A stretch of DNA of 64,000 bases from Octopus sinensis (lineage: Eukaryota), in the NCBI RefSeq assembly GCF_006345805.1, contig NC_043010.1, positions 39,556,001 through 39,620,000 on the forward strand, given 5' to 3'. Below the pieces are notes generated by a model. That model made no database searches. It saw only the letters and a list, made by a program, of their open reading frames with translations, and was not told the DNA's origin. This document shows positions 5,219 to 58,765 of this stretch, in pieces. The translations under genes were made by a program, and so were the position numbers. Within the stretch, counting starts at the first letter, position 1. Each line of letters begins with the position of its first letter.

Positions 5219-6417
5219 CGAGTTGTTGTCAAAATGTTCCCGGATTAGTTACGTTTAATAAAAAGTAACTTATTTTCTTGAGTTTTAACATTATCTCTGT
5301 CTACATAGTCACCTTGCGCAGCGTTCCTGCTATTTCTGGAATCCGGCCTGGTTGACGTTTTCGATAAGTCGAGGACCTTCTACGATTTACCCTTGTGGAG
5401 GCACATGGCCTAGTGGCTAGAGCAGCGGACTCGCGGTCGAGGAATCGCGTGTTCGAATCTCAGACCGGACGATGTGTGTGTTTATAAGCGAAATACCTAA
5501 GCTCCATGCGGCTCCGGCAGAAGGTAATGGCGAAACTTCTGCTGACTCTTTCGCCACAACTTTCTCTCATTCTTTCCTCCTGCATCTTGCAGCTCACCTG
5601 CGATGGACCGGCGTCTCGTCCAGGTGGGGAACCTATACGCCAAGAAACCGGGAAACCGCCCCTTATGAGCCAGGCATGGCTCGAGAAGGAACAAACAACA
5701 AAACAACAACGATTCGCTCTGGATTTCGACAACGGTTTGAAAACAGCGACCTTTCAGCTGCATTTTCCTCTTGGGGAATAGATGGAAGTCCGTGGGTTCT
5801 AAATCTGGCTAACTGGACGCTAGCGGAAGCGATACCATGATGTTTTTTAGCAAGAAACGCACGAGGGAGGAAGTTTCGGTGTAGAATCTAATTCTTCGCA
5901 CTCCACAGATCCAATGGCTTTCGCCAAATGCCCTTCCTCAGACGCTTCTAAACTTCACAGTAGAACTCTTGATTGACGGTCTTGCCCTGGGGGACGAATT
6001 CGCGATACACAAAACCACATTTCTTGGAGTGACTCGTGGCACGTCTCCCAAATCGTTCATCCTCTTCCAAGGACGCTCTTCCGCTTCCGAAGCGCCCGTT
6101 CCACTTGAAACATTGTGTAGGGCCCATTGCCTCGTCACTGTAAGCTTGCCGAAGCATGATCACGGTGTTTGTAAAAGACTTCTCAAGTTTAATTCGAAAT
6201 TTCACATTGGCTTTTTGTTGCTGTCCATGACAAAATGGCAGACTACAGCAATACACGTGATCACAAAAAACACTAATTTCACAACTTGTGAAGTAAACAC
6301 AGCGATGTCACTCGGCAGACTGCCTCACCTTGCTACCTCTCACCTCTCACACAACCATGAGCTGCCATCTATTGGTGTGCTACAGAACTAGTCCGGGAAC
6401 TTTTTGATATCACCTAG
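5219..6417 (-). mobile_element. Internally deleted mariner transposon with a nested SINE
   Basis: Imperfect TIRs: cgagttgttgtcaaaatgttcccggattagt and actagtccgggaactttttgatatcacctag. ORF 5948..6256 has the mariner HTH region (ANVKFRIKLEKS...QAYSDEAM...SLEEDERFGR) joined directly to EFVPQGKTVNQEFYCEV. Confidence 0.88.
5396..5710 (+). mobile_element. tRNA-derived SINE family B inserted in the mariner
   Basis: A-box tggcctagtgg, B-box gttcgaatc, CAA-rich tail; head shared with copies at 7126, 18105, 26090 and 36378. Confidence 0.88.
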
Positions 6418-7125
6418 AATCATATATCCAACTAGCGTGTCATCAAAAGAAAAACATTATGAAACATTCTACAGGTCAAAATGGCTTCATGGGTTTAACT
6501 AACAAATTAAGGAACAGGGTTTGTCTATTTGGCAACATCCTCTTTCCTGTGATTGAACATTCCAAATGCCCTTACGATAAGAAAGAAAAAAACTGTCCAG
6601 GCATGCTTTTTCTAAGTACATTTTTTTCCCTAGCCGACTATCTGGATTGAATTTTACTTAATTTTGCATTAACTGTTTATTCTTCAATTTCAAATTCTCT
6701 TTATATTTGCTTATATTCCGTCAGAGGAAACATATTACAAACTGAATTCCTGGGTGAAGAGTGAATAAGCCAAACAGAATGATTCTACGAAGGACAGTCA
6801 GTATGCTAGAAATAATAGGTAAACCTCATCCCAAACACGCATCAACAACTTTAAAAAATTGATAATGTAATCATTGCTAAAACAAACTCTCTTTAAATAA
6901 TGTGATAGGGACGGCTATGTTGAAAAGAATAGCAAAAGATTACTCATATATATACTGTGTATTTCTGTTCACAATGACTTCAAATTTCCGCCTTGCAAGG
7001 GCTTTTTCTGGTAGGCGAGAATTCGAAATCACTATTGACAAACTCATCTTACAAGTAACTTACATTCTTTACATTAATTTATAACATTAATGTTGTTATT
7101 TGGAATGACTGTAATTAAAATGTGT

Positions 7126-7512
7126 GGAGGCGCAGTGGCCCAGTGGTTAGGGCAGTGGACTTGCGGTCATACAATCGCGGTCTCGATTCCCAGACCGGGC
7201 GTTGTGAGTGTTTATTGAGCGAAAACACCTAAAGCCCCACGAAGCTCCGGCAGGGTTTGGTGGCGAACCTTGCTGTACTCTTTCTCCACAATTTTCTCTC
7301 ACTCTTTCTTCCCGTTTCTGTTGTACCTGTAATTCAAAGGGTCAGCCTTGTCTTACCCTGTGTCACGCTTAATCTCCCTGAGAACTACATTAAGAGTACA
7401 CTTATGTGTGGATTACTCAGCCACTTGCACGCTAATTTCACGAGCAGGCTGTTCCGTAGATCAGATCAGCTGGCACCCTCGTCATCGCAACCGACGGATT
7501 GCCACCAAATAA
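7126..7512 (+). mobile_element. tRNA-derived SINE family B
   Basis: Head ggcgcagtggcccagtggttagggcagtggacttgcggtc...tcgattcccagaccgg; body shared with 18105 and 36378. Confidence 0.9.
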
Positions 7513-10019: not shown

Positions 10020-10095
10020 CATTACTTACAATTACCGGATATTTGTCTTCATCTTGCTTGTTGTTAACACGACTTTTCAGCTGATATACCCTCGT
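10020..10095 (-). mobile_element. PLE terminal-repeat fragment with a decayed hammerhead 3' half
   Basis: Reverse complement gagggtatatcagctgaaaagtcgtgttaacaacaagcaagatgaagacaaatatccgg matches 58668-58730 and 37530-37575. Confidence 0.6.
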
Positions 10096-21487: not shown

Positions 21488-21547
<60 letters not shown>

Positions 21548-21616
21548 CAACATATATACACATACGCATACACATACATATATACATACATATATATATA
21601 CACAATATATAGATAT

Positions 21617-22518
21617 ACACAATATATAGATATTAATTCCAACCACCCCAAAAATATATTAGATAACCTAGTAAAAAGTGTCTCAATTAGAATTTCTAGC
21701 CTGTCCGCCACGGAAGATATCTTTAAGGCCGCAGCCCCCTATTACAACGAGGCCCTGGCCCGCAGTGGCTTCAAAGATAAGATTACCTATACTAGTATAG
21801 CCCCACGCCAACCCAGGAAAAATAGACGAAGACACATTAGCTGGTACAACCCCCCCTTCAACCGTGAGGTCGCTACACCTGTAAAGCAAAAATCTTCTTC
21901 ACTCTCCTACAGAACACTTCCCCACCCAACATAAGTACTACACTATCCTAAATAAGAACACTATTAGACTCTCCTACTCTACCACGCCATCTAGCCAGGA
22001 ACCTAGCCAACAACAATGTGAAAAAACTTAACATATCTACTTTTTCCGAGGCCCATCCAACGTCCGATAGCAATTGCAACTTCCCTGATAAAACCACCTG
22101 CCCCCTCAACAACAACTGCCTACAGAGGGACCTAGTATATACATGCGAGGTAAGATCAGGCCCTGACGATAAAAGAAAATCCTACGTAGGAATGACGTCA
22201 AACAGCTTTAAGACCCGTTGGTACGCACACACACACTCGTTCCGGCGACAGAATAAATCCAACCAAACTACCCTCGCCGCCCACATCTGTTACCTTAAAA
22301 GGAACTCCATCCCCTTCAAGACCAAGTGGAAACTACTACAGAAGGCGCGCTCGTACACAGGATGCCATACCTGCTGTGACCTCTGCATATCGGAGAGCCT
22401 AGAGATCTTGTTCGCCAAAGGCCCTCTCCTTAACAAAATCTCAGAACACTCCCCAAATTGTATGCATAAGAAGTATGCGAACTACAAGAACTATAGACCT
22501 ACCCGGCAACCAGATTGA
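21617..22518 (+). pseudogene. PLE polyprotein C-terminus: RT thumb/linker plus GIY-YIG endonuclease
   Basis: QYIDINSNHPKNIL...RISSLSATEDIFKAAAPYYNEALARSGF...RHISWYNPPFN...HFPTQHKYYTILNKNTIRLSYST (about 3 single-base shifts at 21885-22010), then the open frame CNFPDKTTCPLNNNCL...LVY...YVGMT...FKTRW..H...CDLCISE...LLNK...CMH. Confidence 0.92.
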
Positions 22519-26089: not shown

Positions 26090-26202
26090 GAGGCGCAATA
26101 GCCCGGTAGTTTAGGCACCGGACTCGCGTGCGTCCGATCGCGGTTTCGATTCCCAGACCGGTCGTTGAAAGTGTTTATTGAGCGAAAACGCCTAAGGCTT
26201 CA
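26090..26202 (+). mobile_element. SINE family B head
   Basis: aggcgcaatagcccggtagtttagg...ttcgattcccagaccgg...gtgtttattgagcgaaaac. Confidence 0.8.
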
Positions 26203-31505: not shown

Positions 31506-32752
31506 TAAGATTGTTTCACATGAAATGCCATATTTGAAAGGTAATAATAAAATGTTTCAAAAGTGTTAGAGAACTGATTTATTTAATCAAAGTAAGATCC
31601 ATGTTCATTTAAGACGTTTAACCAACGTTTTTCCAAGTTATATATACCATCTTTAAAAAATTCTTCTTTTGCTGTGATTAACAGTCCGAATGCTTCAATT
31701 ATCTCTTCTATATTTAAGAATGTTTTATTGCTTATGAAAAGCTCAGAATGCGTGAATAACTGATGATCAGTAGGAGAGTTATCAGGGGAAATGGGAGGAT
31801 GTTGCAAAATCTCATAATTCAGGCTTTGCAACTTTTGGACCGTAGCTTGAGGAATGCGAGGGCGTGCATTGTCGCGGAGCAAAATTGCGCCATCTCTATT
31901 CACTAGCCTGGGTTGCTTCTTTTTCAAATACACTTGCATACAATCAACTTCCTGGCAGTACGATGTTGCTGTTACCGATTTTCCTTGCTATAAAAAATGA
32001 ATAATGAATAACTCCCTTCGCAGACCAGCATACAGCGACCACTAACTTTTTAGGGCACAATGGTGGGTTTGGGTAGTGTTTAGGTGACATTCCTGCATTT
32101 AATCACTGTCCTGTTCTCCTGCTGTTGTCAAAGAGTATCTATTTCTCATCACAAGTAATGATTTGATGCAAAAATTGTCTTTTCCCAGTTGAGAAAGCAA
32201 TAAGGAGCACACTTCCAGGCGTCTTTTCCACTAAATCTCGCTGAATTGGTGTGGAACAAACCTACCTGTTCTTTTGATTTTCCAATTTGTAACAGGTATC
32301 CAAAAGCGGTTGCGTATGCTGTTTGGAGTTCTGATGAAAGTTTTCGGACCTTTGTTCTCAGATTTTGTTCAACCAATGCATTTAATCCATCATGCCCAAT
32401 AACTGATTTTGGCCTAACCAATGGGTTTTTTCAAGGCTGTCATGTCCTGAACGAGAGCTTTGGAACCATCTCTGAACAGTTCTGGTGTCAACAAAATCAT
32501 TACCAAAGGCTCGCTTGATATTCCGTTGAGCTTCTGCGAAGGAGTGACCCAGTCTGTACTCATACGAGAAATTCACTCAACATAGTTTGGTTGTTATCAT
32601 TTTCATAAGGTCTGTGGGTATGAATGTTGCATACCAATATTGTTGGAAAAGAAAAGGAGTCAAGAATAAATGTAAGGTATACATAATAGAGTTTTTAAAT
32701 GACTGAAATAACTAATAATTAAAAATGCGACATTTCATGTGAAACAAGCTAA
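31506..32752 (-). mobile_element. Full-length decayed mariner transposon
   Basis: TIRs taagattgtttcacatgaaatg / catttcatgtgaaacaagctaa; ~1.25 kb; transposase pieces YEYRLGHSFAEAQRNIKRAFG...QRWFQ, ILLRDNARPR, HPPISPDNSPTDHQLF and NLEKRWLNVLNEHGSYFD. Confidence 0.93.
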
Positions 32753-33647: not shown

Positions 33648-36377
33648 TTTAGCTTATTTTCACACACGTATAGCCCTGTTTCGAACAACAACTTTTTAAT
33701 AACATCTCAGATAGTGGATTGTCGTATCGCACGTTCGGATGACTTGCCTTTGCCAATAACGTACCTCTACTCAACTACCGAACTCTCACTTCCGACGGCT
33801 CGACTTAACAGGACTCGACGTCTAGTCTACCGACGGCTCTTCGACGCTTATTTCTTTATTTGGCACCACGGCCACAACACTGAGGAGGACACTACATGGA
33901 CAGACACAACACCACAATGGGGACATAAAACATAAAACGAATGAGAATGAAATGTTATATAAAAATGAAGAAAGGAAATGGCTGCATGGGCCCCATTTCC
34001 CATGCAGTACCATGTGAACGTTTACACGCACTATTTACAATGTTCTATTTTTCTATTGTTTTTTCTTAATCATCTTTTTTTTCTTTTTTTATATGAAACA
34101 CTTTTACTTTTTCCTTTCTTTTCTTTCAACAAAAGAATTTTACTTACTCTGTTTTTCCATTGTAATACCTCATGATGTCTTGCAAACAACTTGCACATGC
34201 AAGTGCTACCAGTTAAAAGCTCCGTATATCGGAAGCTAGTATGTGTATGGGGTCATCAGGAGAGAATGCGCGACGTTTCGAGGCCTACCTCTCGACGGCA
34301 TCAATGCGCACCGCTCCCGCCTCACTGATATGAGGCCCCGCTTGCTAGATCAGCTGGTTATGAAGAACTCAATATACTTCTAGCCATCGCTCATCGTCTC
34401 TTTTTAACCAAATGCAGTGGCTAGCCTTCTCCACTGTAGATTGGATATCAGTCATGGTGGTATTGACTTTACGATGAGTTAGGCCTTCTACGACTAGTCA
34501 TCACATCCACTATTTATACGTATTGGACTAGCCTACTTGTTGTCTGGGGCCTCCACACAACAGGATAAAAAAATCGCCGGTTATATAACAGATCGAGCAA
34601 TAATTTTCATTGAGACGCGGACTCAACGACCGCTTTAGTTATGCATAGTGATTTAATATTGATACTTTCATAATGTTAAATAATTCCAGGAATTTTAATA
34701 GCGAAATAAACATTCAAATGAATAAATACGGTAGCAAAACGTTTATATACTATTGAAGTATTTCTGAAGGGTGTTATTCCACCTTTGGTCACCTAAGGTA
34801 ATTGGAAATCGCTGATACTGAGGTCAATAGGGCTTCAATTTGACATGACTGCAGAAATTTTGGCTGTAATTAAGATTTTATCGAAAATTACGTTCAGTGA
34901 CGGTAGTGTTCAAAGTCATTGCAACATATGAAAGTGAATGGTTTATAACGAAATATATTATCACTTATGTAGTATCTTATAGCGCACTTCGAGTATAAAA
35001 CTTGCCAAATTAGTAAGGAAATCTATCTTGCTGGAGGAAAACTTACAAAGTCAATTAACGTTGGTTTGAAATGTGTTTATCAAAGCTAACTATCGAAATA
35101 TGAATAATAACTAGTCAATAGTGAATCATAAATGCATAAACCCGATGCATTTTTATGTGTTAATGTTAATATATTTCTCTAAGTGATTCATAATTAGATA
35201 GCGAAATATATCCTTTGTTATTAACCACAGCAGTGTATGTCTATCGTAGAAAATAATAGACATGGCAATTTGATTATTCAGTTTGCTTTATGGCTATATC
35301 AATATGGGCCTTTATTCTCTGAGATGGATTTTTCTGTTGCTGGTGAGAACTAACGAACAAGTTAGAGTGTAATTTTCTATTGCAATTATTTATTATCATT
35401 TATTATTAATATATTTAAGAAGTGTCGTATTTAGTCGATGTTATCTGAAACAATACATTGTATGCAAAAGAAATACTGGGGAAAATAAATCTCACCATCA
35501 TCCACTATGAAAATGTCCTTTTCCAATAATCTCTATGAGATTGCTTCACCTACTAAAAGCTAAATGGTTCTTCAGTTTTTATCAAAACTATATATATTCT
35601 AGATAGATCTAGGGTAGACTCTTCTGTCACGTCTGAAGTGACTGATCATAGGTTTGCTCATTCAAGCTTGACCTGTGGTTAAATAACGGCTTCAAGTGAA
35701 ATATTCAAATATTAAAACAGAAAAGAAAAAAAAAGAGGTTTGTATATATTGATTAGTGTATTTGAGTCAGTAACATTTGCAGCTCTTCCAGTCAATCCGC
35801 TACACTAATTTTATGTAAAGCTATATAATACACGGCAATTAAACGTCTCAGCGCTTAAGCTGTGTATCTTGCGATTCTGCTTCCCACTTTGAGAGGAAAT
35901 CTCAAACTTTCCAAAAATATGAACACTTCTTCATTCCATCGTATATTTATTTATTTGTTTACATATTTATTTTAGAATTTTATATTTAACTACTTTTGTT
36001 GGTAGCATAATGCAAGACTTGATACTGTTTACTAATGAAGTGTTTCAAATAAAACTGAGAGCTATTTCCCTTAGGCAGTTAACTTTCATTTCCAATTTTT
36101 TTACTGCCTGAAAGGCCACACCTTCAATACCAACAAAATTATTGCACACAGATACAGAAATATAAAAATAGAGAAGCAGAGAGATTTAGTGTTTTATCAA
36201 AATACTTCAATCGCTATGTTTATTTCAACTACCTAAAACTTTAACATTGCGCGTAACGCACACATGACGGAACGTCTATGTAGCCGCTCAGCGTGTTAGA
36301 CATTGCAGGAATTTTCTCTCTTAAAATCTCGCTTCTGCGATTTTTTTTCCTTTTCAATTAGAAGAACAATACTGGTC

Positions 36378-36875
36378 AATAGCCCAGTGGTTAGGGCAGC
36401 AGGCTCGCGGTCGGAGAATCGCGGTCTCGATTCCCAGACCGGTCATTGTGAGTGTTTATTGAGCGAAAACACCTAAAGATCCACGAGGCTCCGGCGGGGG
36501 TTGGTGATGAACCCTGCTGTACTCTTTCACCACAACTTTCTCTCACTCTTTCTCTGTTTCTGTTGTACCTGTATTTCAAAGGGCCAACCATGTCACACTG
36601 TGTGTCAAGCTGATTCTCCCCGAGAAGTACGTTAAGGCTACACGTGTCTGTGGAGTACTCAGCCACTTGCACGTTCATAAATGAGCTGCGACGTCACTGA
36701 TGCCAAGCTGTATCGGCCTTTGCTTTTCCCTTGGATAAGATCAGTGGCATGGAGAGGGGAGGCTGGTATGCATGGGCGATTGCTAGTCTTCCATAAACAA
36801 CATTGCCCAGACTTGTGCTTCGTAGGGTAACTTTCTAGATGCCATCCCATGGTCATTCATGACCGAAGGGGATCA
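36378..36875 (+). mobile_element. SINE family B, long variant
   Basis: Family-B head and body plus an extra ~190 bp 3' module. Confidence 0.85.
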
Positions 36876-37505: not shown

Positions 37506-37529
37506 GATATATATACATTTGACATCATG

Positions 37530-38770
37530 TCTCTTGTTAGCATAAAGTTTCGGCTAAAACACCATTCACCCTTCATGAGGTATCTTGGGGAAATTCCTAA
37601 GGTATTATTCAATTTTGTTGTTATTATTATTAATACCATTATAATTATTATTCAAGTCACCGCCTGGAATCGAACTCGGAATCTTGGGGTTAGTAGCCCG
37701 CGTTCTTAACCACTACGCAATTAACAGTGGGCAATAATGATGTGGATTTTAGGGCTTATAAATCTAATATTTTCCTATTCTTTCTTAATACCGTTTCCCA
37801 TATGCTACTCATATCTGCACTCGGTCTGCTTAGGACGTTGTTGTGTCCTAGCATATGTGCTGCTTCTTTTAGTTTCCGTATTTTCCAGTGGTGTTCTCTG
37901 TATGAAACAACGGAGACCACCTCCCTGCAGGGGAGGGGGAAGTGGTCTCCGTTTTTCCATACATGATCACCTATACCGGATTTATCAATATCTCCTCGTG
38001 TCACAGCTTTGCGATGTTCGTCTACCCTTATTTTGAGGAGCGGCATGTTTCGCCTTTGTATAAACTACCACAGCTGCATGGGATAGAGTATACGCAGGTT
38101 TTGGTCATATTCTCTTCTGTTGATGGGTTTTACTCGAAGGAGATATTTGCGAAGTGCTGTATTACCACTGAATACTGTCCTGATGTCACATGGGCCGCAT
38201 ATCGTTTGTATCTTTTTGGAGAGACCTTTCACATAAAGTAGACAGACTGTGGACAGTTTATCGGTTTCATCCTCTCTTTTCTCTATAATTGGAGTCGATA
38301 GTATGTTTTGGGGGTAGTTGTTACTTAATGGATTGTTACTGAGGTTGGTCATTTCTTCGTGGTGGGTATCACGATCGCTGCTTATATTCTTTGCTAGAAG
38401 TTTTTGGCACTGAGCAATCCCTCTCTTTACACTGTATGGTTGATGTGAATTGAAGTTGAGGTATCGTCCAGTGAAGATCGGTTAGCGGTATAGAGATGTC
38501 CTGAATCCATACTCGGTCCGTATTATTAATACGTGCAGGAATGCTAGCTGCTTGTCTTTTTTCCTTTTCCATTGTAAAATGTATGGATGACGTGATCTAA
38601 CAGCACTTGGACATCTTCCTGGCGGGGCCAGAGTATAAAGGTGTCATCAACATATCGCAGCAATAGGGTTGGTTTTAGTGGTGTTGGTCCTAAATGCAAA
38701 TTCTCAAAATATTCCATATATATATACATATATTGGCTATTATCGGTGATAATGGCGAACCCATAACTAC
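37530..38770 (-). mobile_element. Decayed 5'-truncated Penelope-like element (RT + GIY-YIG + 3' terminal region)
   Basis: MGSPLSPIIAN..YMEYFE...LRYVDDTF (RT); VYSIPCSCG..YKGET and KIRVDEHRKAV...GDHVW (GIY-YIG); followed by a tRNA-like segment, (TAA)n and a decayed HHR. Confidence 0.9.
37655..37725 (-). other. tRNA-like segment (Pol III A/B boxes) inside the PLE 3' end
   Basis: Reverse complement ttgcgtagtggttaagaacgcgggctactaaccccaagattccgagttcgattccaggcgg; D-arm gcgt/acgc, loop CT-ACT-AA, B-box GTTCGATTC; acceptor stem poor, so not a functional tRNA. Confidence 0.75.
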
Positions 38771-39881: not shown

Positions 39882-41158
39882 CGAGGGGCGTTCAATAAGT
39901 AATGCCTCTGACCCACTTGCAGTTGTTTGATCTAGCTGAAAGTTTGCATGTGCAATTATTTATATCTCTATAGATTATTGGCAAATTACAGCTCTGAACT
40001 AATTGTGATTTCTGATTTACAGGTGTTTGAACTGAGTCAAGTGTGAAACGGAGCCTGTTGAGTGTCGAGCAGTGATGCGGTTTTTGTATTTGAAAGGACG
40101 CACACCACGGGAGACTTTTGATGAAATAAAAGTAACTTATGGTGATGATGCCCCATCATATGACCTTGTAAAACGCTGGCATCGTGAATTCAAACATGGT
40201 CGGAACTTTGTGGAAACAGCTCCCAGATCTGGTCGCCCCCTTCTGCCATTGATGAGGCATCTGTCCGTCAAGTTGAGGCTGCCATTTTGGAAGATCGACG
40301 CATAACTATTCGCCAAATAGCCCATGAGGTCAAGATTAGTACCGGGTCTGTGGAAACTATCATTCATGACCATTTGCATATGCAAAAGGTGTCTGCCAGA
40401 TGGATTCCCAGGCTGCTCACACCTTTCCAGAAGCAAGAACGCGTCGATTGCGCGAGGATGAATTTGAAGATGTGCCAAGAAGATGAGTCAAAATTTTTCA
40501 AAAGACTGATTACACAGGATGAAACCTGGGTCCATCACTATGATCCAGAGACCAAAGCCCAGTCAATGCAGTGGAAGCACCGTGACTCACCTCCTCCAAA
40601 GAAGGCAAGGGTGCAGCCCTCCGCTGGCAAGGTCATGCTCACAGTCTTCTGGGACCAGGACGGAGTAGTGATGACAGATTTCTTGGCAAAAGGTGCCACT
40701 ATTATGCTTCACTTTTGAGGAAATTAAGAGAAGCTATCAAAATCAAGAGGCGGGGCAAGATCAGCAAAGGCATCCTCCTCCTGCAGGACAACGCTCCGAT
40801 CCACAACTCGCGTGTCGCCAGATCAGAAGCATAGGCGTGCGGCTATGAACTCATCCCCCATTCTCCCTACTCTCCTGACCTGCACCCTCTGATTTTCACC
40901 TCTTCCCAGCCATGAAGTTGTTTTTGAAAGGAAAGCGTTTCCCAGATGATGCAGCCTTGATTTCTGAAATCACGTCGTGGTTGGAGGACCAAGCTGGGGT
41001 CTTCTACAAAAACGGTCTTCAGAGCTGCATCAAACGATGGGAGAAATGCGTAACTCTGGGTGGTTCCTATGTAGAATAAGACTAATAACTGTGCCAAGTT
41101 TCGTTGCTCTACTGCTATGGGAAGTGGGTCAGGGGCATTACTTATTGAACGCCCCTCG
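39882..41158 (+). mobile_element. Full-length mariner (irritans/Hsmar2-like), recently inactivated
   Basis: 1277 bp; near-perfect TIRs cgaggggcgttcaataagtaatgcc; TA TSD at both ends; transposase (T)EPVECRAVMRFLYLKG...WIPRLL...ITQDETW...QDNAP...YSPDL; start codon is ACG, a few frameshifts and a TAG. Confidence 0.97.
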
Positions 41159-47254: not shown

Positions 47255-47550
47255 ATTAGACTCGGAAAGTTCGTGAGGAACCCATTGACCCAATTTGCTG
47301 ACTTTTCCGATAGCACACAGGTGTCAATGAATGGTTGAATGACCAAATCCAAGCTTCTCTGCTAGTTCCTCAACAGTTACGATGATATTTTGTTCCACCA
47401 GGGTTTTCAGGATGTCCTTGTCGAGTTCTACATATCTTTCAGGACGAGGCTCGTCTTCTAGGCTGTAGTTTATGGCTCGGGATTTCTGGAACCACCATTG
47501 ACACTGCCTTTCGCTTATTGTCCAATCCCCATATACTGCATTAATATTTC
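47255..47550 (-). mobile_element. Mariner deletion derivative
   Basis: RNINAVYGDWTISERQCQWWFQK...SLEDEPRP...LKTLVEQN..TVEELAEKLG; TIR-like attagactcggaaagttcgtg at the left end. Confidence 0.82.
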
Positions 47551-48343
47551 TTGTAGTTTGCACACATTTATATTCTGTTATTCTTTTATATGTTTCAGCC
47601 TTGAGGTTGTGGCCATGCTGGATCATGTGTGTGTGTGTGTGTGTGTCTATCTGTCTGTCTGTCTGTATGTATATATGTATATGTATGTGTGTGAACAATA
47701 ATATTTTCAACAGATGTGTTGCAAATGTATCTGATTGTTCTCAAGCTTCAATACTGTGTGTGTGTGTATGTGTGTGTGTGTATGTATGTATGTATATGTA
47801 TGTATGTATGTATATGTATGTATGTATGTATGTGTGTATGTATGTGTGTGTGTATGTATGTGTCTGTGTATGTGTGTGTATGTATGTATGTATGTATGTA
47901 TGTATTATGTATGTATGTATGTATGAGTGTATGTTTACTTTATTACTAATTACTCTCTCCAAGAACATTTTCACTCACTCTTAGCTCTTAGCTTCCCATA
48001 CATTTTACTCATGTATCTATCAGCGTCATAGACAGAATACTTTCACTTTAGTCTTCCTCAAATCACTCTGTCGCTATTTACTTTCATTTTATTCGTTGCC
48101 CACTGTGTGTGTGCGTTTGCGTGTGGTGTAAACCAGACTAAGAAAAGCATTTGACACACACACCAGAATGTGAGTTTTCTGTAAATTTTGCTTAATTGGA
48201 GTTTAAATTTAAAAAACTGGACCTGGCATGACGCGATGCAATGTACTCTTAAAAATGCTAGGTAAATTGTAATTGAAGAAATCCTGTATTGTAGATTTGT
48301 ATAACTCCCAAAGGGAGGCAGATAAAATCTGCCTTTTATAATA

Positions 48344-58056: not shown

Positions 58057-58554
58057 CATACATACATACATACATACATACACACATATACCCCCACGCG
58101 CACACACACATACATATGTATATACATATTTACAGATTTTCACTGCATGAACTTGCAGGTGGGGCTCAGTTAGAATTTTCTTCTGATCGAGTAGCCCATC
58201 CCGCTCAAAAGGTCCCTGAATAAAGATTGTTTAAGAATGTTGAACGATCCACCCATGTTTCCAAAGGTGAATTATCCAAACCTACAAGAATTCCTTTCAA
58301 CACACGGATATGATACTCCCCCACTACTTCTGCTCATGATCAAAGATGCACATATCGTCAGCCAATATGGGTCATTTCCAACTGGTTATGGTCAAACAAC
58401 TGACAAGCAAATCTGGTATTGAGCAGAATATTTGCTGCAGCTCATCTTTTATACCAAGACAAAACAATGTACATGATAACACTGCCAATCAGTTATGATC
58501 ACATGCCATGAGAGCCACTGTCATGTACTACATCAGGGCAATTATCATCATCAT

Positions 58555-58581
58555 TATTATTATTATTATTATTATTATTAA

Positions 58582-58640
<59 letters not shown>

Positions 58641-58765
58641 TCACTGCCTGAAATCGAACGGAGATGGAGGCTGGAGAGTATATTAGCCGAAACGTTGAGG
58701 ACAAATATCCGTCAAATGTAAATAATATAAATAATGTAAATAATTCCTCATCTCTTAAAAATAGT
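58555..58765. mobile_element. (ATT)n plus inverted tRNA-like 3' half joined to a decayed HHR/pLTR (same family as 37530)
   Basis: ttcaggtcactgcctgaaatcgaac (minus-strand B-box) abuts gatggaggctggagagtatattagccgaaacgttg (plus-strand HHR-like). Confidence 0.65.

Follow-up and report, generated by a model that had tools for sequence, protein, structure and literature searches.

The window analysed here is a 64,000-nt stretch of Octopus sinensis DNA. On its minus strand, positions 37759-38769 hold the 3' part of a PLE open reading frame (ORF), decayed and 5'-truncated, whose translation contains the RT thumb and a GIY-YIG/CCHH endonuclease; the ORF stop codon is at 37756-37758. By its sequence, the segment that follows (37530-37756) is a terminal repeat (pLTR); it comes from a decayed member of a high-copy family of the Penelope/Poseidon type.

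The stop codon is separated from a tRNA-derived head (37653-37726) by a 30-nt spacer (37727-37755), which contains a short palindrome centred on -2/-1; numbering is from +1, the first base of the head. In the family consensus the ORF likewise ends 30 nt ahead of the head. G-6 (37732), the putative 5' end of the RNA, lies within the spacer, 13 nt ahead of the A box; its position comes from same-direction junctions rather than from RNA mapping. The A box (37710-37720) has one mismatch in this copy, while that of the consensus fits TRGYnnARBGG at +8/+18; the B box (37667-37675), at +53, fits GWTCRAnnC. Next come a (TAA)n(CAA)n array of variable length (37614-37652), which in other copies is frequently split by a different retroelement, and the leader of the next unit with the beginning of its ORF (37585-37613), where the start codon has been lost through a 19-nt deletion. 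A type I minimal hammerhead in the 5' end of this ORF (37539-37584), delimited by consensus columns, stems and alignment, has its predicted cut between 37544 and 37543; the ribozyme is dead in this copy, with core G5 altered and the stems disrupted. The eroded 3' remainder (37518-37538) runs into (TA)n, and the usual 3' ends of the family (+245-264 and +285-290) are missing from it. The tRNA-like unit, TAA repeats and decayed hammerhead that the original prediction placed after the GIY-YIG stop are all found, on the minus strand.

The family has a second and a third locus in the window. An inversion junction had been claimed at 58636-58700; it lies within 58634-58764, where an inverted arm with the 3' part of the head and the TAA array (58634-58659, minus strand; 96% over 26 nt) is joined to a forward arm with hammerhead and tail (58663-58764, plus strand; 79% over 122 columns). 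The hammerhead tail reported at 10020-10095 is present as a fragment at 10020-10093 (minus strand; 88% over 74 nt), which has the 3' half of the hammerhead and the tail without the CUGAUGA half.

Several other mobile elements have left copies in the window. One retroelement sits repeatedly inside the (TAA)n array, where it splits head from hammerhead; it occurs at 58200-58555 (minus strand) and at loci L258, L262, L268, L333 and L356, and its coding pieces are presumably of the Dong/R4 type with an REL endonuclease. Decayed transposase fragments, which we take from their motifs to be mariner-type, are located at 40188-40718 (gene on the minus strand, listed frame on the plus strand), 31583-31987 and 47324-47740, and a non-LTR ORF fragment at 756-1121 is assumed to be RTE-like. 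A second, younger PLE family (21500-22518, plus strand; L361-L390) has frames of up to 675 aa and a microsatellite-rich 3' region, with no tRNA head in the 420 nt past the stop; it provides the control for T-runs discussed below. The linker between its RT and EN domains is Cys-rich, which is Neptune-like by the accessible text of PMC8557442.

The element family

A consensus built by script from loci in this genome gives a unit length of 2,673 nt; its frame is open for 838 aa. The order of parts is head, (TAA)n, ATG, hammerhead, tail, RT, GIY-YIG, stop, 30 nt and the next head. The ATG is at +128, and the tail runs on into the ORF in tandem copies; a polymorphism in a 9-nt repeat of the tail keeps the reading frame. 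No intron is evident in the family consensus. The window copy is 89% identical to the consensus over 37650-38769, and its protein has 150 scored matches in this genome.

At E<=1e-20 there are 1,659 homologs of the ORF, with PF00078 on most among the matches listed. In the Pfam comparison, RVT_1 is found on homolog P0004 and no domain on the decayed window copy (P0001); P0004 has 474 identities over the length and shares the ribozyme-encoded PD(E/D)G..PKR start. By eye, the GIY-YIG motif reads VY..YKG. CCHH is recognisable from a CSC between the GIY and YIG equivalents and His residues downstream, and the CX2-5CxxC linker is absent; this combination is the Penelope/Poseidon layout in the part of PMC8557442 that is accessible. 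The pLTRs are partial-tandem or inverted, with a 30-40-nt tail on one end, as in Penelope/Poseidon EN+ PLEs. By its ORF layout, motifs, pLTR arrangement and hammerhead, the element is of the Penelope/Poseidon EN+ PLE type.

The family is abundant. Exact 20-25-nt family words occur in the genome 1,315 times (head 5' part), 3,919 times (head 3' part) and 9,889 times (tail); the reversed-word control is 0 for each of the three. Forty fixed-spaced 10-kb stretches (400 kb) contain 4 loci of the family, which as a rough estimate suggests tens of thousands of loci. Since this sampling gave too few loci for statistics, those used for junction statistics were gathered by exact-word anchoring, which is biased toward less-mutated copies.

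Head and hammerhead of the terminal repeat

The tRNA-like head is integral to the terminal repeat of the family, as had been proposed. Starting from the ORF (58 loci, less 4 duplicates and 5 that end before the stop), the head is present in 40 of the 49 distinct copies passing the stop. Starting from the head (90 fetched, 4 segmental duplicates dropped), 73 of the 86 arms have pLTR body downstream, 68 of them within 500 nt and 5 farther away behind an insertion; a common SINE body was sought in the other 13 arms and none was found. The case of a unit that mostly stands alone as an independent SINE did not materialise. Contigs from four other organisms also span the ORF end to the head. One point of the original prediction needs correction: the head had been described as a 3' feature, and in function it belongs to the next ORF, as its 5' leader; the ATG of that ORF lies 127 nt past the head start.

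A profile of 43 tRNA genes from this genome matches the head colinearly from +1 (nhmmer, E=9e-6). A and B boxes of the family consensus fit the published consensus at tRNA spacing, as given in accessible sections of PMC4333407 and PMC11547032, and such a pair appears in 0 of 2,000 shuffles of the element. The cloverleaf stems of the head are decayed. ARAGORN found no tRNA in the window with default settings, and relaxed settings gave noise. Rfam matched neither a tRNA nor a hammerhead in the window stretch or in one well-kept copy; for the whole window it gave only microsatellite-driven miRNA matches among the matches listed (150 of 343).

The best parent-tRNA scores are 60 for Arg(TCT) and 59 for Cys(GCA), within a set of 43 genes that covers only 10 anticodon types. 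A different tRNA-headed repeat has four copies in the window (5398-5475, 7125-7205, 26090-26168 and 36370-36448). Against the PLE head, the 5398 copy reaches a score of 59, level with the best tRNA; the head may therefore derive from a resident SINE. The last 14 nt of the spacer resemble an inverted copy of the first 10 nt of the head (P=0.023 against shuffles). A longer decayed inverted head copy upstream of -14 was considered and is unsupported (P=0.18).

The hammerhead is well preserved at the level of the family. In the consensus no core base is missing, helices I and II are 5 bp each, an A stands unpaired ahead of helix II, and helix III is palindromic; minimal hammerheads of PLEs are described with these same traits in the accessible text of PMC4209133. 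The ribozyme consensus first drawn by eye from the window copies agrees with that of the family, and the core survives in the rebuilt version. The hammerhead sits within codons 11-25 of the ORF, with a predicted cut at +197/198. In about 18% of copies (30/166), CUGAAGA replaces the CUGAUGA core at consensus +166, and PDEG in the protein becomes PEEG.

Junctions within copies may reflect activity of the ribozyme. Six of 34 same-direction junctions within +113..+280 fall at +196-200, the predicted cut (p=5e-4, or p=3e-3 once one doubtful row is removed), and none of the 34 falls at +159-195; over all arms the predicted cut is not significantly enriched (10/105, p=0.10). From this pattern, in vivo cleavage of some of the RNAs at +197/198 by the ribozyme is likely.

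Copy architecture, probable RNA start and promoter

Most copies are short. Of the head-anchored arms that reach +6 (n=53), 41 come to an end at -17..+6; the other 12 are linked to the ORF. An inverted family arm lies directly upstream in 56 of the 86 arms. Among 51 two-armed loci, 31 pair an arm ending near +255 with one ending near +290. Comparison of 100 read-through copies with 9,889 exact tail words indicates that ~99% of copies go no farther than the RT start. Copies are single, inverted or two-piece partial-tandem only; multi-unit head-to-tail arrays of the short unit are absent from the 90 head-anchored, 30 tail-anchored and 90 read-through loci.

The short copies, each with boxes and ribozyme, outnumber the long ones, and a tRNA head plus hammerhead has a precedent in schistosome Sm-alpha; the original prediction had suggested a separate SINE-retrozyme hybrid. 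An independent non-autonomous family of this kind, mobilised in trans by the PLE, is very improbable. Short and ORF-linked copies share diagnostic variants, and arms ending at the head (n=28) are as diverged as ORF-linked arms (n=11), at 4.9% and 4.6% (P=0.75); multi-unit short arrays are lacking, and the ~99% of copies that stop at the RT start are without the downstream RNA that the PAc protein needs in vitro. The short SINE-like copies are by-products of the element and form no separate SINE-retrozyme, since their haplotypes and age match those of long copies. Status as an independent SINE lineage was also rejected for want of a shared alternative body, and status as an animal non-LTR retrozyme for want of head-to-tail short-unit arrays.

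The pile-up of inverted junctions at the head end is ambiguous as evidence for an RNA start because the short palindrome at -2/-1 coincides with it. In 107 ORF-selected loci, the head start was the end of an inverted partner arm only once, and 27 rows had an inverted piece inside the ORF. Same-direction joins need no palindrome and were examined for this reason. Many read-through copies (tail into ORF) are joins of this type, in which a piece from the 5' part of the ORF is linked to another pLTR piece. The read-through set comprises 100 exact matches, of which 90 were fetched, 1 was not analysable and 4 were dropped as duplicates; exclusion of 5 joins inside the TAA array leaves 44 same-direction joins.

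Ten of the 44 joins reach the head. Five are exactly at G-6 and follow A-rich linkers, two are at -5, two are at +3 and +7, and one is ambiguous through microhomology (-6 to -11). The 7 joins at -7..-5 are a strong excess (p=2e-7; 2e-5 after scanning), and counting the ambiguous one they make up 8 of the 10 head-reaching pieces. The two 5' ends within a read-through copy agree to within 10 nt in 14 of 34 cases, with 4.0 expected by permutation. This agreement, together with the peak at the ribozyme cut, suggests that same-direction joins record RNA 5' ends. G-6 is 13 nt ahead of the A box; the Alu start is taken as 12 bp ahead of it in the accessible text of PMC4333407. The A-rich linkers at jumps suggest in addition that the RNAs involved would be linear and A-tailed. 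The longest link from G-6 reaches +1008, and a copy from G-6 spanning the whole ORF was not seen among these loci.

Some joins have other origins. Another eight same-direction joins have their start within the ORF and look like internal deletions; two, which represent one event, extend to about -55. The same two internal deletions (about 325-408; 432 to -55) are found in L544 and L561, as if a small non-autonomous derivative had amplified. The same joins also recur at separate places in L564-L566 (411 to 115) and in L567, L568 and L572 (~450 to the TAA array); these are possibly short partial-tandem copies that were re-mobilised or duplicated.

The head might instead be a passively captured SINE or tRNA piece, at which ends arise through fold-back or annealing of the palindrome (-7..+5) while the promoter lies elsewhere. 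Only one hairpin of the unit is stronger than the palindrome, in RNA as in cDNA, most ends at the head are inverted junctions (the 56 of 86 arms above), the cloverleaf stems are decayed and the head scores equally well against the other tRNA-like repeat of the window (59) and the best tRNA (60). Passive capture is nonetheless improbable: same-direction junctions without any palindrome begin at G-6 after untemplated A-rich linkers and not at -7 or -14, where the stem is longest, and a palindrome of the same shape at +136 has no symmetric junction in 30 tail-anchored loci. It also leaves a depletion of T-runs unaccounted for.

This depletion concerns the sense strand of the consensus, which has 0 T4 where 2.9 are expected by synonymous shuffling (P=0.026); the opposite strand has 31. 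Five-mers with four or more T number 4, against 16 expected (P=0.0005). The control PLE of this genome is headless and equal in T content; its consensus contains 8 T4 and shows no such deficit. Among related ORFs (those of at least 330 aa from 80 metagenome loci), at least one T4 is found in 41 of 41, and five-mer ratios range from 0.48 to 1.41, compared with 0.19 here, these being single copies set against a consensus. One real decayed copy of the family has 2 T4. Most sampled tRNA genes of this genome have T4 or longer within 30 nt downstream. RNA 3' ends at jumps are TT-ending in 9 of 45 cases (background 4.7%, p=2e-4); TT ends are not enriched where copies simply end (2/21).

RNA-seq of a related organism (three unstranded runs, ~6% of each) has abundant family reads on both strands and gave no RNA start or end sites. 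Across the GIY-YIG end and the spacer (L038:1455-1720), some reads come from another subfamily that is more diverged. In 41 long-ORF related loci, many on contigs too short for a pLTR, one A/B-box pair was found (L398). It belongs to a tRNA-like element 480 nt upstream of the related ORF on a metagenome contig and was set aside as a separate insertion; the pLTR of the related PLE itself is headless.

The boxes, the junctions and the T-run depletion make it likely, with a probability of roughly two in three, that the tRNA-derived head acts as the internal Pol III promoter of the element, with the RNA probably starting at G-6; the original prediction had assigned the head this role. Genomic junctions reveal an RNA 5' end and no enzyme, and known PLE promoters are internal and Pol II-like, so a Pol II start could coincide with G-6 while the A and B boxes are relics or only TFIIIC-binding sites. 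We give this little credence: 13 nt to a perfect A box is Pol III geometry, and T-run avoidance and TT-ending 3' ends suit Pol III.

How much of the element would be transcribed from the head is a further matter. It is slightly less than an even bet that the whole 2.7-kb, 838-codon unit is Pol III-transcribed from a captured tRNA promoter and that its uncapped RNA (5'-triphosphate or ribozyme-cut) is translated. The corollary, to which we lean about as far, is that Pol III terminators would have been purged from the ORF and that internal RT priming would spawn tens of thousands of SINE-like leader copies. Pol III at the head might alternatively yield only short RNAs, which give the SINE-like copies, with the ORF mRNA supplied by Pol II, through read-through or from a Pol II promoter at another place in the tandem array. 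Several points would suit short RNAs: the RNAs that Pol III makes carry no cap, RNA 3' ends at jumps are mostly at +320-550 and a full-length copy beginning at G-6 was not found. A TATA-less, LINE-like internal promoter together with an intron is also described for Drosophila Penelope in the accessible text of PMC2377424. We consider restriction of Pol III to short RNAs unlikely; T4 and near-T4 signals are depleted across the whole ORF, which is needless for short transcripts, and one jump connects G-6 with +1008.

The life cycle of the element may run as follows. Pol III would start the RNA at G-6 from the head, 127 nt upstream of the ORF, and with T4 and near-T4 signals absent could read the whole ORF; the ribozyme would cleave part of the RNAs at +197/198. 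RT would then begin internally at two positions on the RNA, +255 and +290 (~35 nt apart), each serving one strand of the target. For the anole element PAc, the accessible text of PMC11167929 describes a pair of internal RT starts, and double-strand priming, in vitro. An RT start in the first pLTR of the G-6 RNA would run off the RNA 5' end after ~290 nt, and the two cDNAs would anneal via their self-complementary ends to give the head-to-head SINE-like dimers that dominate the family; a start at G-6 gives cDNA with such an end and would account for the palindromic dimers. More rarely, RT would jump to the A-tailed 3' end of an RNA, which would produce partial tandems. An RT start in the second pLTR of a tandem transcript would proceed through the head into the ORF and give long copies like that of the window.

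If the head is a Pol III promoter, this PLE offers a route to a coding element and SINE-like copies from one source, and it raises the possibility of cap-independent translation of a long ORF; if the whole unit is transcribed in this way, LINE and SINE would be combined in one element. Protein-coding retroelements are not known to use polymerases other than Pol II, or Pol I in the case of R2; Pol III promoters are generally a mark of non-coding parasites. The junctions yield two single-base predictions, an RNA start at G-6 and in vivo cutting by a minimal hammerhead at +197/198. There is also a consequence for annotation, as copies of this family will be misfiled as tRNA-SINEs.

Comparison with known systems

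Full-text literature searches, together with the accessible parts of the cephalopod repeat papers PMC13282606 and PMC8967140, turned up no protein-coding PLE with a tRNA-type promoter; Repbase, Dfam, supplements and subscription papers may hold the family. Its individual features are shared with several known systems, which are compared here through the accessible text of the papers cited.

The Schistosoma elements Sm-alpha and Sj-alpha (PMC6765202, PMC2770079) carry a type I hammerhead after a tRNA-derived Pol III promoter. These elements are non-coding, often tandem and non-autonomous, whereas in the octopus layout the same combination fronts a coding element and the ribozyme lies in the ORF. 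Animal non-LTR retrozymes (bioRxiv 10.64898/2026.07.22.740005) are likewise short hammerhead-bearing sequences from PLE pLTRs; the accessible retrozyme text makes no mention of 'tRNA', 'pol III' or 'promoter'. They are head-to-tail tandems with a hammerhead in each unit, while the octopus copies are single or head-to-head and form no separate lineage.

tRNA-derived SINEs and Alu (PMC4333407, PMC11547032) share A and B boxes at tRNA spacing, a start 12-13 nt before the A box and a T4-free body. In contrast to these, the octopus head belongs to an autonomous element and has no independent SINE lineage. In Drosophila virilis Penelope (PMC2377424), as would be the case here, the pLTR holds an internal promoter from which the ORF lying downstream in a tandem is expressed. 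That promoter is TATA-less and LINE-like and is accompanied by an intron; the accessible text describes no tRNA-type promoter for it.

Among Penelope/Poseidon EN+ PLEs, PAc of Anolis carolinensis (PMC11167929, PMC8557442) is the nearest counterpart of the octopus family. Both have a single ORF with RT and C-terminal GIY-YIG, CCHH and no CX2-5CxxC linker; both have partial-tandem pLTRs, inverted 5'-truncated arms and a hammerhead overlapping the ORF start, as well as two internal RT start sites 30-40 nt apart (inferred here) and a tail on one arm. Unlike PAc, the octopus family has an A/B-box head in its pLTR, a probable start 13 nt before the A box and a sense strand without T4, and it is dominated by roughly 290-nt head-to-head dimers. 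RNA-seq of PAc has no ends at the ribozyme cut, whereas the junctions of the octopus family suggest that cutting occurs in vivo.
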